The notes: generated from the letters alone by a model not told the origin. A stretch of 64,000 nucleotides of DNA from an uncultured delta proteobacterium (GCA_963832165.1 CAWHTE010000011.1:96001-160000), one strand, 5' to 3'; positions 1 to 4,941 are shown, numbered from the stretch's first letter. Made by a program: numbers and translations.

Positions 1-155
1 TTCAACAGCTCTTCCGAAACTCCGAACATTATCCTGCGAAACGTCGCAGCCTAACCGAATCACTCACCGCGCAACCCCGCGATTCGACGCGACTCCCTAC
101 CCACACCGGTAAAATAGGCTGCAAGCTCTCGCAGTATTCGCTGCATGGGGGCGCA

Positions 156-174
156 AGCTAATAAGTAGTTAGCC
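156..174 (+). other. Putative integron attI simple site
   Basis: AGCTAAT, a 5-bp spacer (AAGTA), then GTTAGCC (GTTRRRY core). GTTAGCCG is the exact complement of CGGCTAAC at the end of the following gene. No attC-type long hairpin precedes it. Confidence 0.6.
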
Positions 175-186
175 GGCGGGAAGGCG

Positions 187-567
187 ATGCAGACCTTGCG
201 GTCAATTCTCGTGCTCCTCCTCATCGCGATCATCCCGGCGTCGGCGCTCGCGGAGGTGTCCGACAAGGCACCCACGATTCCGCGCCATTGGGTTATCGCT
301 ATCCCCATCGCTGCAGTTCTCTTCGCGGCGGGAAGCCACCGATGGTGGCTTGGCGCGCTACTCGCCGTCGTTCCCATCTTCATCCTGCTCGGCTCGATCG
401 ACATGACGTTCGATCAGTACGTTGGTCCGGCTCTATGGCGCGAGCAGGGCTGGCCGTACTTCGCAAGCCTCTGGAGCTCGGACCTTCTCATGCTCGGTGC
501 CCTGCTGCTCGGCATTCGTCGCGGCTGGGCACGCCGACAACACTCCCATGAGCTACCCGGCGGCTAA
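187..567 (+). CDS. Gene cassette 1: small hypothetical membrane protein (126 aa)
   Basis: ORF starts 12 bp after the GTTAGCC core and its TAA lies inside the R'' box GGCTAAC. Signal peptide plus about 3 hydrophobic segments. Confidence 0.8.
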   Translation: MQTLRSILVLLLIAIIPASALAEVSDKAPTIPRHWVIAIPIAAVLFAAGSHRWWLGALLAVVPIFILLGSIDMTFDQYVGPALWREQGWPYFASLWSSDLLMLGALLLGIRRGWARRQHSHELPGG

Positions 568-690
568 CAAGCGCTTGAAGCTGCCGAGCCCTGCGAAGCG
601 TATCGAGGCTCGATACTGTCTGGCGTCGGCGCTCGGGGCGGTTCCACTGGCGGTCAGCGGGCTCGCAGCTTAAGCGCCGATCCGTTAGAT
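562..690 (+). other. Integron attC recombination site (129 bp)
   Basis: R'' GGCTAAC at 562-568 and R' GTTAGAT at 684-690. GCGCTTGAAGCTGC (571-584) pairs with GCAGCTTAAGCGC (665-677) with one extrahelical base, and pairing continues inward (CGAGCCC/GGGCTCG). Confidence 0.9.
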
Positions 691-703
691 CCTCTCTGCG
701 CTG

Positions 704-1690
704 TCAAGCGCTCATCGCGCAGAATTTCTCGCCGTCGAAGTTGCTATTGCTCGCCCACATTCCGTGGATGCTATGCAGGAGCTTTCGCTCTACGGCGACC
801 AGGGCTTGGATGGGCTTGAGTCCTCCTGCGAGGCGCTTCTGATAGAAGGTCCTCACACTGGGCTCCTCACGGGCTGCGACCATCGCCGGCATGTAGAGCG
901 CCGCTCGCAGGTGACTGTTTCCCTTCTTGCTGATCCGGGCGGGCTTGTGCAGCGAGGTTCCCGAGTCGTGCGCACGCGGGTCGAGTCCCGCGTGAGCGAC
1001 CCACTGACGAGGGGTCATGTCGGCGGGCAGCACGGCGAGCTCGGCGAGAATGCGCAGTGCGCTGGTGGTCGCGATGCCGCGGACCGAAATGAGCCGCTCG
1101 AAGCGTTGCGCGAGCTCGGGGTGCGCTTGCACGAGCTCGAGCGCCTGCTGCTGCAAACGCTCCAGGCTCTGCGCGAGATGCTCGAGGTGCGCTTCGATGT
1201 CCCAGGCGATCGCTTCGGTGAGCTCCGCACAGCGGCCCGCCGCATGAAGTCGATTGCGCTCCTGGGTTCGCGTGACGGTGAGGGCGCCGATCCGACGGAC
1301 GATCGCCCGTAGATCGAGGATCTCGGGCGCGGGCGGCTGCCACGATGCGAAAGGCATTCGCTGCGCAAACTCCAGCAGCACCCCTGCGTCCACGCGATCC
1401 GTCTTCGAGCGCTGCAGCAGCGCGCGTCCGAAGTCCCGCGCCGCCGAGGGGTTCACCACCATCACGTCGATCGCTCGCGCTCGATGCAGCGCTAATGCCA
1501 AGTCGAGGTGGTAGATGCCCGTCGCCTCCAGGCACACGCGCGCGGCCTTTCCGCGGCGGGTCAGCAACCGAATCAGTCGCTCGTGGCCCTCGATATCGTT
1601 GGCCAGTGTGACCCGCTCGGCACGCCCCTCGATCGCCACCGTGATCTCGTCCGCGCTGACATCGACTCCCACATAGCAGGCTCCACGCAT
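704..1690 (-). CDS. IS110-family DEDD recombinase/transposase (328 aa)
   Basis: Motifs VGVDVS, CLEATG and KTDRVDA (DEDD). C-terminal domain has AGLDP...DSG (catalytic Ser) and GNSHLRAALY. Confidence 0.95.
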   Translation of the reverse strand: MRGACYVGVDVSADEITVAIEGRAERVTLANDIEGHERLIRLLTRRGKAARVCLEATGIYHLDLALALHRARAIDVMVVNPSAARDFGRALLQRSKTDRVDAGVLLEFAQRMPFASWQPPAPEILDLRAIVRRIGALTVTRTQERNRLHAAGRCAELTEAIAWDIEAHLEHLAQSLERLQQQALELVQAHPELAQRFERLISVRGIATTSALRILAELAVLPADMTPRQWVAHAGLDPRAHDSGTSLHKPARISKKGNSHLRAALYMPAMVAAREEPSVRTFYQKRLAGGLKPIQALVAVERKLLHSIHGMWASNSNFDGEKFCAMSA

Positions 1691-1699
1691 GCGTCCCCC

Positions 1700-1865
1700 C
1701 GTGTTACGCTGCTTCCGGGTTCCCCGACCCTGTACCGTCGCCTACCGACCTTGTGGATGCAGGCTCTCGGGCCTCGGATCCTCCACGGCATGGGCGAAGA
1801 GGGCGGGGGACCCATCTAACGGACAAGCTCGTGGCTTCAGGCAGCAACGGTCTCCCCGGAAGCGT
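1700..1865 (-). ncRNA. Putative IS110 bridge RNA (ends approximate)
   Basis: Two stem/internal-loop/hairpin units at 1805-1856 and about 1729-1794. Their loop strands match the insertion site and the element's circle junction. Confidence 0.75.
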
Positions 1866-1917
1866 GATCATGCTAGGTCGGATCGTCGGCACGGCCACGG
1901 GGTAGATACAAGGCGTC

Positions 1918-2296
1918 ATGAGCAGGATCGCCGCAACCGCCGTTCTGTGCGCCTGCTGCCGTCATCGCCATTCAGGCGTGTACACAGGTCGCTGGGACGC
2001 GCGCGTATTCGCTCGATTCCCTGCAAGGCGGTTGGTGGTCAGACTGCAATGATCCCGCCGTCGAGTTTCTAATTCGTGGCACCGAGTACTCAGGCGACTT
2101 CGACGGTGCATACGAGCTCACACTTACCGGTGATGTCCTCGTGTTCACGGATGGGCTCGTCGATGGACACAGCACCAATGTCACCCACAAGCCGCTGTCA
2201 TTTCAGATTCTGACTCTGACGGACGAGCGGCTTGTATTGCGCCCATCGCCTGGCAACCCTCATGTCGGCGACTGGGATCTACTATCCTGCAAGTGA
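1918..2296 (+). pseudogene. Gene cassette 2: probable lipoprotein with a frameshift near 1945-1950
   Basis: ATG 1918 gives MSRIAATAVL. A shifted frame continues APAAVIAIQACTQV...GGWWSDCNDPAVEF...LLSCK* to TGA at 2294-2296. Confidence 0.6.
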
Positions 2297-2349
2297 ACTC
2301 CGCGAGATGAATGGCAGCGCGGACATTAGGCCGACGCGCGAGGGGCGGC

Positions 2350-3085
2350 ATGTTGCCCGAGAGCAGGAACATCGCCGACGCCTACTGGGCTGCAGACCTT
2401 GGTTGTGAAGCGGAGGCGCTCAGGCCGACGGAGCCGCGTGTGCAGCCCGTCAGCGGCAGGCACGCGGACTACAACGGCGCATTCATCCTGGTGCTCGATG
2501 GAGCGCCCGTCGTGTCCGTTCCGCCGTCGCTCCTTGCCGTCGTCTCTCCAAGGTCCGCCGAGTTCCGTGCGGATGTGGTTGCGGACCCGAAGCGGCTTCA
2601 CCCGCTCCTTCCTGGGTCGGACCCGACGCGCATGATTGGACCGGCCCACCTCTATTACGCCGATCGAGACCTGCTTCCGATCCACGTCGGCCCTGCCAGC
2701 GCGCCCGCTGAAACCCCTCGACGAAGCGGCCTTTCGGAGGCTCGAGGCCGCGTGCACACCTGGCGACTGGGAGCCGAAGGGATTCGACTTGGAGCCCGAC
2801 CGCACCCACGGCGCGTTCGACCCTGTTGGAGAGCTGCTTGCTGTCGCGAACTTCCGGGTCTGGGGCGAGCGCATCGCGCATCTCAGCGTCGTCGCCCGTC
2901 CGGATGCGCGCGGCAAGGGTCACGGCACGAGCGCGGTCGCTTCCGTCGCGCTCCATGCGCTGCAGTCCGGGTACCTCCTGCAGTACCGGGTTCTGGCTTC
3001 GAACGCGCCATCCATACGGATCGCGCAGAAGCTTGGCTTCCACTACTACGGTTGGTCCATGGCGGCGAGATTTGGCTCGGCTTAA
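2350..3085 (+). pseudogene. Cassette-like GNAT acetyltransferase, frameshifted near 2670
   Basis: N-terminal part from ATG 2350. The shifted frame carries VVARPDARGKGHG and NAPSIRIAQKLGF. Its stop lies in the R''-like GCTTAAC (3080-3086). Confidence 0.7.
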
Positions 3086-3093
3086 CAAGGGCG

Positions 3094-3600
3094 CTGACGC
3101 TCGTCCGCAGACTCGCTCGGCATGAGTGGCGCGAGTATCGCGAGCTTCGCCTGCGCGCTCTCGCCGACTCACCTTCTGCCTTCGCGACGACGCTCGCTGA
3201 CGCTCGGGCTCGCGGGGACGAAGACTGGTCCCGTCAAGTGGCCTTGGGAGCGGAGTCTCCATCCGAGATCGCGCTCGTCGCGGAGATGCACTCGCAGCTG
3301 GTCGGTCTCGTGTGGAGCCGGATCGACGATTCGGATCCCCACCGTGCTCATCTCTATCAGATGTGGGTCGACCCGGACTTCCGCGGCCTTGGAGCGGGAC
3401 GGGAGCTGCTGGCCTCCGCAATCCGCTGGGTCGCGAGCGTCAACGCCCGTGTCATCGTCCTGTCGGTCACCTGTGGCGACACTCCGGCGACGCGCTTGTA
3501 CGGGAACGCGGGCTTCGAGCCCGTCGGGCATCCCGAGCCCCTTAGGCCTGGATCAGACATACTGGCACAGCCCATGCAGCTCGAGTTGCGTGGTGCCTAA
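3094..3600 (+). CDS. Cassette-like GNAT acetyltransferase; canonical start codon missing
   Basis: LRLRALADSPSAF, MWVDPDFRGLGAG and ATRLYGNAGF motifs. Its stop lies in the R''-like GCCTAAC (3595-3601). Confidence 0.8.
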   Translation: MTLVRRLARHEWREYRELRLRALADSPSAFATTLADARARGDEDWSRQVALGAESPSEIALVAEMHSQLVGLVWSRIDDSDPHRAHLYQMWVDPDFRGLGAGRELLASAIRWVASVNARVIVLSVTCGDTPATRLYGNAGFEPVGHPEPLRPGSDILAQPMQLELRGA

Positions 3601-3714
3601 CAAGGCGCGGTTGCACCACTTGCGGCCGCGGTTGGTGACTCCCTTCCTTAGTCGCCACCCCGTTGACTTTCTCCGCGTGATGTGGCGAGATCCCTGCGGG
3701 GGGAATCGCATCGC

Positions 3715-4941
3715 GTGAGCGAGCCCGCTCGACCCGAAAAAAGCCTCGAGCGCGAGATCCGAGCGTTTCACTGGATCCGCCTGCTCGCGGAGCTCTCGGG
3801 CCGCTTCGCGGGCACCGATCAGGAGGGCGAGGCGGCGCGGCGCATCGAGTCGTGGCTGCGCGAGCTCGGCTTCGACGAGATCGGGTTCGCTTCGGTGCCG
3901 TCGCGGCCGCGCGCGGGTTGGGTGTGGGCCGCGCACTTCGTGCTGGGCGCGCTCGGCTGTGCGCTCGGCGGCCCTGCGGGACTGATCCTGGCGGGAGCTG
4001 CGATGCTCTCGTTCCGGCGCGAGGTCACGGGCGGGGCACCGCTGCTCTCGCGCTTGTTCCCCGCACGCGATTCGCAGAACATCGTCGCGCGCGTCGGATC
4101 GCTGCGGCCGCGCCGGCGCGTCGTGATCACGGCGCCGCTCGACGCCGCGCCCGCGAGCGGGCTGTTCGCGGGCCGGATCGCGGCGCGCAGCGCCGCTCCG
4201 CGTGCGGGCGATCGGCCGCCGCGCGGCCTAGCCGCGCTTCCCGTGTTGCTCTTCGACGCGGCGGCGATCGTCTGCGCGGCCGCTGCGCTGGGTGCGGACG
4301 GCACCGTGGTGCTGGCTGCACGCGCGGTGACGGGCGCAGCGCTCGCATTCGGCGCGCTCGCGGCGCTGCGCTGGGCGAGTGTCGCCGCGTCAGCGGGAGC
4401 GAACGACGCGTCGGGCGTGGCCGCGATGCTGTCGGCCGCCGAGCAGCTCGCGGCGCAGCTCCCTCCCGACGTCGAGCTCTGGTGCGCTGCGACCGGCGCC
4501 GAACACACGGGCTCGCGCGGCGTACACGCGCTGCTCGAGGCGCACCCCGAGTGGCACGACGGCAATACGGCGTTCGCGCACTTCGCGTGGGTCGGCGGCG
4601 GCGTGCTGCACTATGCGTGCAGCGAGGGTGAGCTCAAGCGCGCGCACTATCCGACCTCGCTGCTCGAGCTCGCGCGGCGGATCGCCGCGAGCGGCAGCTA
4701 CGGCGTCGTGTCTCCGGCCGACCTCGCCTTCCATACCGCGGGGGGGCTCACCGCGAAGCGCAGTCCACACGTGCTCTCGCTGGTCGCGCTCGAGCCGAAC
4801 GGCCTGCCGCGCGGCTTCCGCACGCGCGGCGGCGAGCCCGAGCAGATCGACACCGAGCTCGTGGTGCGCGCTGCCGACTTCGGCAGCTGCGTGCTGTCGG
4901 CCTGGCTGCGCGGGGACGCGGAGCCGCTCTCGTACGTGTAG
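3715..4941 (+). CDS. M28-peptidase-like membrane protein with degenerate metal ligands
   Basis: SQNIVAR, VVITAPLD, GANDASGVAAML and TGAEHTGSRG motifs, with hydrophobic inserts. Confidence 0.7.
   Translation: MSEPARPEKSLEREIRAFHWIRLLAELSGRFAGTDQEGEAARRIESWLRELGFDEIGFASVPSRPRAGWVWAAHFVLGALGCALGGPAGLILAGAAMLSFRREVTGGAPLLSRLFPARDSQNIVARVGSLRPRRRVVITAPLDAAPASGLFAGRIAARSAAPRAGDRPPRGLAALPVLLFDAAAIVCAAAALGADGTVVLAARAVTGAALAFGALAALRWASVAASAGANDASGVAAMLSAAEQLAAQLPPDVELWCAATGAEHTGSRGVHALLEAHPEWHDGNTAFAHFAWVGGGVLHYACSEGELKRAHYPTSLLELARRIAASGSYGVVSPADLAFHTAGGLTAKRSPHVLSLVALEPNGLPRGFRTRGGEPEQIDTELVVRAADFGSCVLSAWLRGDAEPLSYV

Follow-up and report, generated by a model that had tools for sequence, protein, structure and literature searches.

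The insertion sequence and its copies

A window of 64,000 nucleotides from the genome of an uncultured delta proteobacterium (GCA_963832165.1 CAWHTE010000011.1:96001-160000) carries on its minus strand an IS110-type insertion sequence, which comprises a recombinase gene and, upstream of it, an element with the features of a bridge RNA, and which lies within an attC-like site. A first-pass annotation of the window had proposed a bridge RNA with four guides and handshake bases, programmed against an integron junction. All coordinates are those of the window, and the principal features are as follows.

704-1690, minus strand: recombinase gene, 328 aa (Pfam and PDB homology)
1707-1863, minus strand: bridge-RNA element of 157 nt, consisting of a target-binding loop, a donor-binding loop and a 3′ hairpin (conservation and covariation)
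1912-1911 and 1910-1906, minus strand: left terminus, core CT followed by the right donor half TGTAT (start of conservation)
695-689 and 688-687, minus strand: right terminus, left donor half AGAGGAT followed by core CT (kept in relatives)
556-688, plus strand: attC-like site split by the insertion sequence, with R′′ GGCTAAC, imperfect inverted arms and R′ GTTAG (cores and fold)

The insertion sequence is assigned to 689-1912 because the identity of its copies and its conservation in relatives begin and stop there. With one CT core (that at 1912-1911) included, it is 1224 bp long; the other core is at 688-687. Another copy on a different contig (G000:C1, where G000 denotes this genome) is 100% identical, and alignment of the flanks shows that they differ beyond GATCCGTTAG on the left in the window and beyond 1915 on the right; two identical copies in different flanks attest to the mobility of the element. 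Relatives came from genome collections (three), from metagenomes (18) and from loci in 19 matching genomes among 400 others of the phylum; they belong to soil and sediment Myxococcota-like genomes, and their loci and genomes are designated L and G below. Homologues as a whole run to several thousand, mostly on contigs of about 1.2-2 kb, on which flanks are scarce. Conservation of the left end begins at CTTGTAT (1912-1906) in all left-end alignments, a motif that occurs twice in the window, and conservation of the right end stops at GAGGAT-CT (695-687). When right ends were located by a pattern anchored on TTGAC, GAGAGGAT-CT or GAGTAT-CT was found invariant, 13 nt past TTGAC, in all 27 of the loci so located. 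A distant blastn search of a plasmid collection with the element gave no match, and a search of sequencing runs found none with at least half of the element's words; small shares were present in soil, rhizosphere and sediment runs and were not used to assign a habitat.

The left end of the element is 222 nt long (1912-1691) and the right end extends 15 nt past the stop codon (703-689). A long left end, a short right end and an RNA located 5′ of the gene constitute the layout of the IS110 group and not that of IS1111, the former being described as having a long non-coding left end, a short right end and a guide RNA upstream of the gene (PMC11208160, PMC11187229). No long (7-17 bp) subterminal inverted repeats were seen by eye in the two ends, no repeat search having been made.

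The predicted recombinase matches DEDD_Tnp_IS110 (PF01548, 2.9e-18, residues 7-150) and Transposase_20 (PF02371, 9.8e-19, residues 198-284), both above the curated cut-offs. The closest proteins of solved structure by phmmer are those of ISCro4 (PDB 9t56, 3.6e-46) and IS621 (PDB 8wt6, 3.1e-45), over residues 6-323. Residues D10, E55, D98, D101 and S243 share alignment columns with the catalytic residues D11, E60, D102, D105 and S241 of IS621 (PMC11208158), if the numbering of the PDB chain of IS621 is offset by +2, as it appears to be. The protein is accordingly a DEDD/serine recombinase of the IS110 family, related to those of IS621 and ISCro4. It had been described as compact, but the PDB chains of IS621 and ISCro4 are 328 and 341 aa long; 328 aa is a normal size for the family and therefore the protein is not especially compact.

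Structure of the bridge-RNA element

The RNA element is better conserved than the protein: its nucleotide identity is still 83-87% in relatives with proteins of only 51-58% identity. A structure patterned on the layout published for the IS621 bridge RNA was tested on an alignment of 24 relatives (A6), and consists of the following helices.

1849-1857 with 1805-1812, minus strand: basal stem of the target loop, 5′ strand GGGG-A-GACC (with a bulged A) and 3′ strand GGUCCCCC (covariation)
1825-1837, minus strand: target-loop hairpin AAGC-CACGA-GCUU (four pairs, 100% paired)
1786-1797 with 1738-1747, minus strand: basal stem of the donor loop, 5′ strand UCGCC-CA-UGCCG and 3′ strand CGGUA-GGCGA (covariation)
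1761-1774, minus strand: donor-loop hairpin AGGC-CCGAGA-GCCU (four pairs, 100% paired, one changed on both sides)
1717-1730, minus strand: 3′ hairpin GGGU-CGGGGA-ACCC, between the bridge RNA and the start codon (nearly invariant in A6)

The 36 proposed pairs are paired in 92.1% of the cells of A6, and pairs changed on both sides number 13, compared with 5.3 ± 1.6 in shuffled alignments (none of 500 shuffles reached 13) and 3-5 in controls in which the structure was slid along the alignment. Four of the eight pairs of the target-loop basal stem (94.0% paired) and four of the ten pairs of the donor-loop basal stem (94.3% paired) have changed on both sides, the latter including G-C to A-U in five rows and U-A to A-U in three. 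In the target-loop hairpin, whose sequence on the minus strand, like that of the rest of the loop, reads as the first-pass annotation had given it, one pair has changed on both sides, A-U being replaced by G-C in four of 23 rows. The 3′ hairpin is 91.3% paired without any pair changed on both sides. Its sequence (GGGUCGGGGAACCC, 1717-1730), which precedes the Shine-Dalgarno sequence and could form a hairpin of 4 bp, is almost invariant down to a protein identity of 35-40%. Agreement with the published IS621 layout (PMC11208158) extends to the sizes of loops and linkers, to the bulged A of the stem and to the G-U linker that follows the hairpin.

A covariance model built from A6 has a single match in the window (1707-1864, 192.4 bits) and also matches elements upstream of the genes of more distant relatives, with scores of 28-97 bits. 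A covariance model of homologous left ends and a comparison of guides with flanks had been suggested by the first-pass annotation as a check on its proposal; the stems and all four guides do covary.

Target guides

Guides were defined according to the published descriptions of IS621 (PMC11208160, PMC11208158). Their order in the RNA is left target guide (LTG), right target guide (RTG), left donor guide (LDG) and right donor guide (RDG), the same as in IS621 and the same as first proposed.

1839-1847, minus strand: LTG, UUGCUGC-CU, core included (varies in relatives and tracks the left flank)
1816-1823, minus strand: RTG, UCCGUU-AG, core included (reverse complement of CT-AACGGA at the right junction, 688-681)
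1814-1815, minus strand: target-loop handshake guide AU (complements donor positions 6-7, AT, at 690-689)
1777-1784, minus strand: LDG, GGAGGAUC (matches AGAGGAT-C at the right end, 695-688)
1750-1758, minus strand: RDG, AU-CC-ACAAG (AUCCACAAG; discontiguous pairing with CT-TGTAT, 1912-1906)
1748-1749, minus strand: donor-loop handshake guide GU (G:C and U-G pairs with target positions 7 and 6, GC, in both genomic copies)

The RTG matches the right flank at all eight positions in both genomic copies and in 13 of the 22 loci with a right flank, at seven positions in four loci, six in three and five in two; the L015 element has a different RTG, which matches its own different flank at 7/8. Together, the RTG and the handshake guide are the exact reverse complement of AT-CT-AACGGA at the right junction. 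The ten-base match between 1814-1823 and 681-690 was among the earlier observations, and holds: TCCGTTAGAT is found without mismatch only at 681-690 (plus) and 1814-1823 (minus) in the 64-kb window, and the shorter CCGTTAG only at the same two places. Handshake guides are pairs of bases that pair with positions 6-7 of the non-cognate DNA (PMC11208158), and the complementarity of AU to the donor AT, previously noted, can be read directly from the sequence. AU is present with donor AT in 22 of 22 loci, but gives no covariation test because both are invariant.

The LTG also varies with the flanks in relatives, so that the roles assigned to 1839-1847 and 1816-1823 at first reading are upheld. Over 27 insertions, a set that leaves out L045 (with an aberrant left end), L023, L024 and loci without a left flank, 116 of 189 non-core positions of the LTG match the left flank, compared with 97.0 ± 4.2 for shuffled flanks (1 in 20,000 shuffles), a figure that is not a probability, kin sharing guides and targets and not being independent. 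L017 and L018, two distant elements that share the LTG UUAGGGG, have the flanks CTAGGGG and GTAGGGG, and they and L011 match at 6/7; a C at position 5 of the LTG is accompanied by C in the flank in six of six loci. With the core included, the LTG matches at 6/9 in both genomic copies. The target deduced in the first-pass annotation, TGCTGC-CT-AACGGA, is thus half right: AACGGA is matched at 6/6 in both copies, and the left half (TTGCTGC at full length) at only 4/7 in both. The 14-nt target itself has three matches with up to three mismatches in the window, 3.4 being expected, and is therefore not enriched there.

Some individual loci show unusual combinations. In L011 (G278), the left junction has the core AT and the LTG reads ...GCCGC-AU, with CT/AG kept at the right junction and in the RTG; the LTG of this natural element appears to be programmed for AT on one side alone, the left. 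Among the five copies in G128 (L012, L030, L033, L035, L036), two are in sites that match the RTG at 8/8 and the LTG at 5/7, and the other three are in poorer sites (right half 5-7/8, left half 0-4/7) that look like natural off-target or half-site insertions. L045:440-530 reads CTGCCGT-CT-AACGGATCGCGG where the left terminus CTTGTAT is expected, and its RTG differs too (AGCGUUAG); the sequence resembles an unbroken target (left half, core and right half) abutting the inner left end, and L045 may be a rearranged or 5′-truncated element.

Donor guides

The LDG pairs with AGAGGAT-C at 7/8 positions plus one G-T wobble; the slightly longer alignment originally reported, of GGAGGAUCC (1776-1784) with AGAGGATCT at 7/9, is reproduced. 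Three states of the LDG are found, GGAGGAUC accompanying AGAGGAT, GGAGUAUC accompanying GGAGTAT or AGAGTAT, and UGAGCAUC accompanying TGAGCAT, and they fit the donor half in 22 of 22 loci; the guide proposed at 1777-1784 holds, and it covaries with the left donor half at the right end of the element.

The RDG pairs discontiguously: ACAAG with CT-TGT and AU with AT, CC being looped out, so that all seven donor bases are paired. In IS621, likewise, nine nucleotides of the RDG are described as pairing with seven of the donor, two being flipped out (PMC11208160, PMC11208158). The RDG GUCUACAAG accompanies CTTGTAC in L014, L016 and the five G128 copies, and AUCUGCAAG accompanies CTTGCAT in L017, changes from A:T to G:C at two positions. 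All 27 loci have a first RDG base that pairs with donor position 14, which reflects only two or three independent changes. After the RDG, the handshake guide GU stands opposite a target GC, as described for wild-type IS621 (PMC11208158); GU accompanies a flank ending in GC in ten of 13 loci, and CU accompanies GG in L017 and L018.

Insertion into attC-like sites

Sites of the attC type have the cores R′′ (RYYYAAC) and R′ (GTTRRRY) flanking imperfect inverted arms, with a total length of about 57-141 bp. The split site in the window is about 130 bp long (GGCTAAC ... GTTAG|GC), its remaining R′ bases GC being located past the insertion sequence at 1913-1914, and its arms pair in the centroid fold of the single-stranded DNA. 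Its R′′ core differs by one base from the consensus; other sites in the genome have GTCTAAC and GCCCAAC. Rebuilt on the plus strand, the empty sites are GATCCGTT-AG-GCGTCA in the window and GATCCGTT-AG-GCGGCG at the other copy, both with GTTAGGC after a long imperfect palindrome starting with GGCTAAC, and unbroken attC-like sites in this genome read GATCCGTTAGGC. A profile made from nine unbroken sites finds 19 sites in the genome, in small same-strand clusters on six contigs, and it matches the right flank in the loci of 16 relatives, always on the strand opposite to the insertion sequence. Both copies and most relatives are inserted in the R′ core of attC-like sites (GTT-AG-GC). The original proposal that the element is programmed against an attC/cassette junction therefore stands, because the rebuilt sites, the attC-like sites of the genome and the flanks of relatives agree, although the left half of the target matches only partly.

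The lineage is specialised on attC in such a way that an exact right half-site comes from the conserved attC arm, and a left half-site that is only partial from the next cassette, whose start is variable. An integron integrase scoring above the NCBIfam cut-off is encoded in four of five genomes of relatives, and is 2.8 kb from a copy of the insertion sequence in G128 and 1.1 kb from one in G218, which is of the same genus as the present genome. In G218, a short canonical attC of about 65 bp, GCCTAAC ... GTTAG, forms the right flank of the element and lies on the other strand (L013:1745-1812). The integron-integrase gene 1.1 kb away shares the strand of this attC, suggesting that the integron has its integrase co-oriented with its cassettes.

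The clusters of attC-like sites in G000 (C2:366199-369984, C2:471735-475126, C7:816554-817522, C5:197473-198086, C4:694867-695734 and C1:226105-235584) each contain two to five sites on one strand, 0.4-2 kb apart, and look like attC clusters without an integrase, or with the integrase in the unassembled 11% of the genome. The 64-kb window has no match to the pattern GCCTAAC...GTTAG and is no long array of cassettes. The split site has small genes on both sides (187-567, 1919-2296 and 2636-3085). The upstream one encodes a hydrophobic protein of 126 aa without a Pfam match; downstream, a small open reading frame with an apparent frame change near 2050 is followed by a gene for a GNAT acetyltransferase (PF00583, 9.1e-09). 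Such genes resemble those of cassettes, though only one attC-like site was found in the window.

Expression

A scan of 600-2000 identified no sigma-70 promoter or terminator in the integrated element. Two sequences near its termini could form a promoter if the ends were joined.

702-707, minus strand: putative -35 element TTGACA, overlapping the stop codon (sequence; TTGAC is invariant in relatives)
1903-1908, minus strand: putative partner -10 element TATCTA (17 nt from TTGACA only in the circular form)

By analogy with the junction promoters described for the IS110 family (PMC11187229), TTGACA-17-TATCTA is probably a promoter that forms only in the circle. A conserved TAnnnT box (TAGCAT, 1875-1870) is also present 6 nt before the conserved RNA element. 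Contigs from four metatranscriptome studies cover 1686-1884 with 0-9 differences, and three of them end at 1854-1862, beside the 5′ edge of the element; they are short, of low depth and derived from relatives, and RNA libraries can hold DNA, so that they give a weak hint of bridge-RNA transcription. The production of the RNA, its ends and its promoter are predictions.

Proposed mechanism and alternative explanations

The preferred explanation, with a probability of about 0.88, is that this is an IS110-type (IS621-like) element whose left end codes on the minus strand for a bridge RNA, about 157 nt long, with guides set to the R′ end of attC. What is observed is the homology of the protein, the insertion sites, covariation in the RNA structure and covariation between each of the four guides and the DNA that it pairs with; the chemistry is carried over by analogy from IS621. 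In the target loop, UUGCUGC-CU would bind the bottom strand to the left of the core and UCCGUU-AG the top strand to its right, specifying TTGCTGC-CT-AACGGA, the reverse complement of the R′ end of attC (TCCGTT-AG-GCnnnnn). In the donor loop, GGAGGAUC and AU-CC-ACAAG would recognise the joined ends of the circularised element, AGAGGAT-CT-TGTAT. The 328-aa DEDD/serine recombinase would then exchange strands at the CT core, the handshake guides AU (after the RTG) and GU (after the RDG) pairing with the incoming non-cognate strand.

Several results weigh against this explanation. The minimum free energy fold of the 230-nt left end is no better than those of shuffled sequences (z = +0.66) and differs from the structure supported by covariation; an outer helix around the RNA (GCUUCC/GGAAGC) is only 76% paired and is kept as an uncertain feature; and a scan of positions 1-4000 of the window against Rfam with E values up to 1 found no family. 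The LTG matches at 4/7 in each genomic copy (5/7 and 6/7 if G-U wobble is allowed) and at 0/7 in L030, 1/7 in L033 and, in register, 2/7 in L015, and when three elements not inserted in attC are left out, its agreement with left flanks is a modest signal (102 of 168 positions, compared with 96.1 ± 2.8; 511 of 20,000 shuffles), to which the caution about kinship also applies. The donor-loop handshake is AC in ten loci and AG in one, the first base of which does not pair with target C7 though it could pair with donor T7, and the analogous change G166A in IS621 is described as dramatically reducing the efficiency of recombination (PMC11208158). As for the integron context, the profile finds only one attC-like site in the 64-kb window, the best match to an integron integrase in this genome (89% complete) scores 72.6 bits relative to the NCBIfam cut-off of 265, and a search with each flank in 20 relatives found neither a homologous flank nor an empty site. 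The promoter scan and the character of the metatranscriptome contigs belong on the same side of the balance.

The donor side of the RNA was read differently in the first-pass annotation, which closed the donor loop with CCGU/ACGG, took GGUAG (1742-1746) as the RDG, followed by a handshake GC (the whole at 1740-1746), and ended the element at 1905 with the donor AGAGGAT-CT-ACC. Both CCGU/ACGG and the pairing of GGUAG with CTACC can be drawn in this one sequence, and GC would complement the GC of the predicted target, but in relatives the CCGU/ACGG helix is only 77.2% paired, two of its pairs being unpaired in eight and six of 23 rows, and no covariation links GGUAG to CTACC (CTACC is accompanied by GGCAG in L010, and GGUAG by ATGCC in L008). 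The bases in question are instead the 3′ strand of the donor-loop basal stem, in which they pair with UGCCG/UCGCC with compensatory changes, and the bases that follow the RDG as placed here are GU (1749-1748). Both copies and all relatives share seven further bases (TGTATCT) that extend the element to the CT core at 1912-1911; the earlier boundary is 7 nt too far in, and therefore its right donor half is wrong, and the target rebuilt from it would not be GTTAGGC. This version of the donor side has very little left to recommend it. An improbable explanation, though somewhat less so, is that the left end functions at the DNA level or as an untranslated 5′ leader, in recombinase binding or translational control, and that the matches to the junctions are remnants of terminal repeats. 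Such a role would suit a region for which there is no direct evidence of a discrete RNA and no promoter in the integrated form, and in which the 3′ hairpin and the Shine-Dalgarno region are very conserved without covariation. However, compensatory changes that keep Watson-Crick or G-U pairs in four helices argue for an RNA structure, U is tolerated opposite positions with C in the top strand as RNA-DNA wobble would allow, two bridge recombinases of known structure are close homologues of the protein, and the layout copies that of IS621 in detail, down to the discontiguous RDG.

A bridge RNA might also be present with the target set mainly by the right half-site or by the folded structure of attC, and not by a match over all 14 nt, the LTG contributing little. 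This is a doubtful but live possibility, and is a refinement of the preferred explanation, not a true rival. The right half is exact in 13 of 22 loci and the left half averages only about 4.3/7; all of the attC-like targets are imperfect palindromes; and recombination at half-matched sites is reported for IS621, as is a requirement for a target stem-loop for ISPpu10, in the preprints concerned. On the other hand, the LTG tracks the flanks above shuffles, its C at position 5 is followed by the flank without exception, and L017, L018 and L011 match at all but one position. By analogy with those preprints, it may be conjectured that a loose left half-site is tolerated in a palindromic target.

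Comparison with known systems

Bridge RNAs and bridge recombinases were described by Durrant et al. 2024 (PMC11208160) and Hiraizumi et al. 2024 (PMC11208158), and of the IS110 elements in the catalogue, 85.7% were predicted to have a bridge RNA (PMC11208160). The present element shares with IS621 and ISCro4 the recombinase fold family, the catalytic residues, the long left end, the short right end and the CT core, and with IS621, as described in those papers, a bridge RNA upstream of the gene with the target loop followed by the donor loop, an LTG of 9 nt, an LDG of 8 nt, a discontiguous RDG of 9 nt on seven donor bases and, in the copies of this genome, two-base handshakes with the donor-loop GU opposite a target GC. 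The RTG has six non-core bases here versus four in IS621. Unlike IS621 and ISCro4, the element has different guides and termini and the R′ core of attC as its target, and is known from sequence alone; its host is a soil or sediment Myxococcota-like bacterium, whereas that of IS621 is Escherichia coli.

Guided targeting of attC is already documented for the IS1111-type elements ISKpn4 and ISPst6 (PMC11187229), with which the present element shares a DEDD-family recombinase, insertion at one end of attC and an element-encoded guide RNA. According to Siddiquee et al. 2024 (PMC11187229), the guide RNA of ISKpn4 and ISPst6 (seekRNA) is downstream of the gene, the order of its target-matching regions is reversed and subterminal inverted repeats are found at the ends of the elements; in the present element the RNA precedes the gene, its guides follow the order of IS621 and no long repeat was seen by eye. 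ISPpu10 and ISPpu9 of the IS110 family have in common with the present element a bridge-RNA element and a natural target in a repeated, structured palindrome, but their target is the REP (repetitive extragenic palindromic) stem-loop, not attC, and the role of target structure reported for them is a conjecture here. Group IIC-attC introns are also mobile elements that specialise on attC, by a retrohoming ribozyme mechanism unrelated to this protein and RNA.

Implications

No report of an IS110-type element at attC was found in the literature searched, which did not include the papers on IS1111 elements at attC by Tetu and Holmes (2008) and Post and Hall (2009) or the supplements of PMC11208160 and is not proof that none exists. 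Tentatively, and with the odds against it, a soil Myxococcota-like lineage of IS110-type elements may have specialised on the R′ core of attC independently of the IS1111 elements; insertion leaves GTTAGAT on the attC side, which still fits GTTRRRY, so that the element together with the next cassette may be excisable by the integron integrase. If so, the two would be moved as a composite cassette, giving a bridge-RNA transposon a second, integron-borne route of spread, and the exact right and loose left half-sites would represent natural half-site or structure-assisted targeting.

The element adds no new principle; it is useful as a clean natural case whose guides and termini can be read and whose natural targets are many, and in which the rules of IS621 (a discontiguous RDG, a wobble-tolerant LTG and handshake bases) operate in a distant lineage. 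Its relatives display natural reprogramming, with three states of the LDG, several of the LTG and RTG, and one change of core. Builders of tools gain a recombinase whose RTG is long (6+2) and for which nature provides a set of tolerated mismatches. For integron biology, attC sites are hit by IS110-type as well as IS1111-type elements, and another element is able to split or ride cassette arrays.

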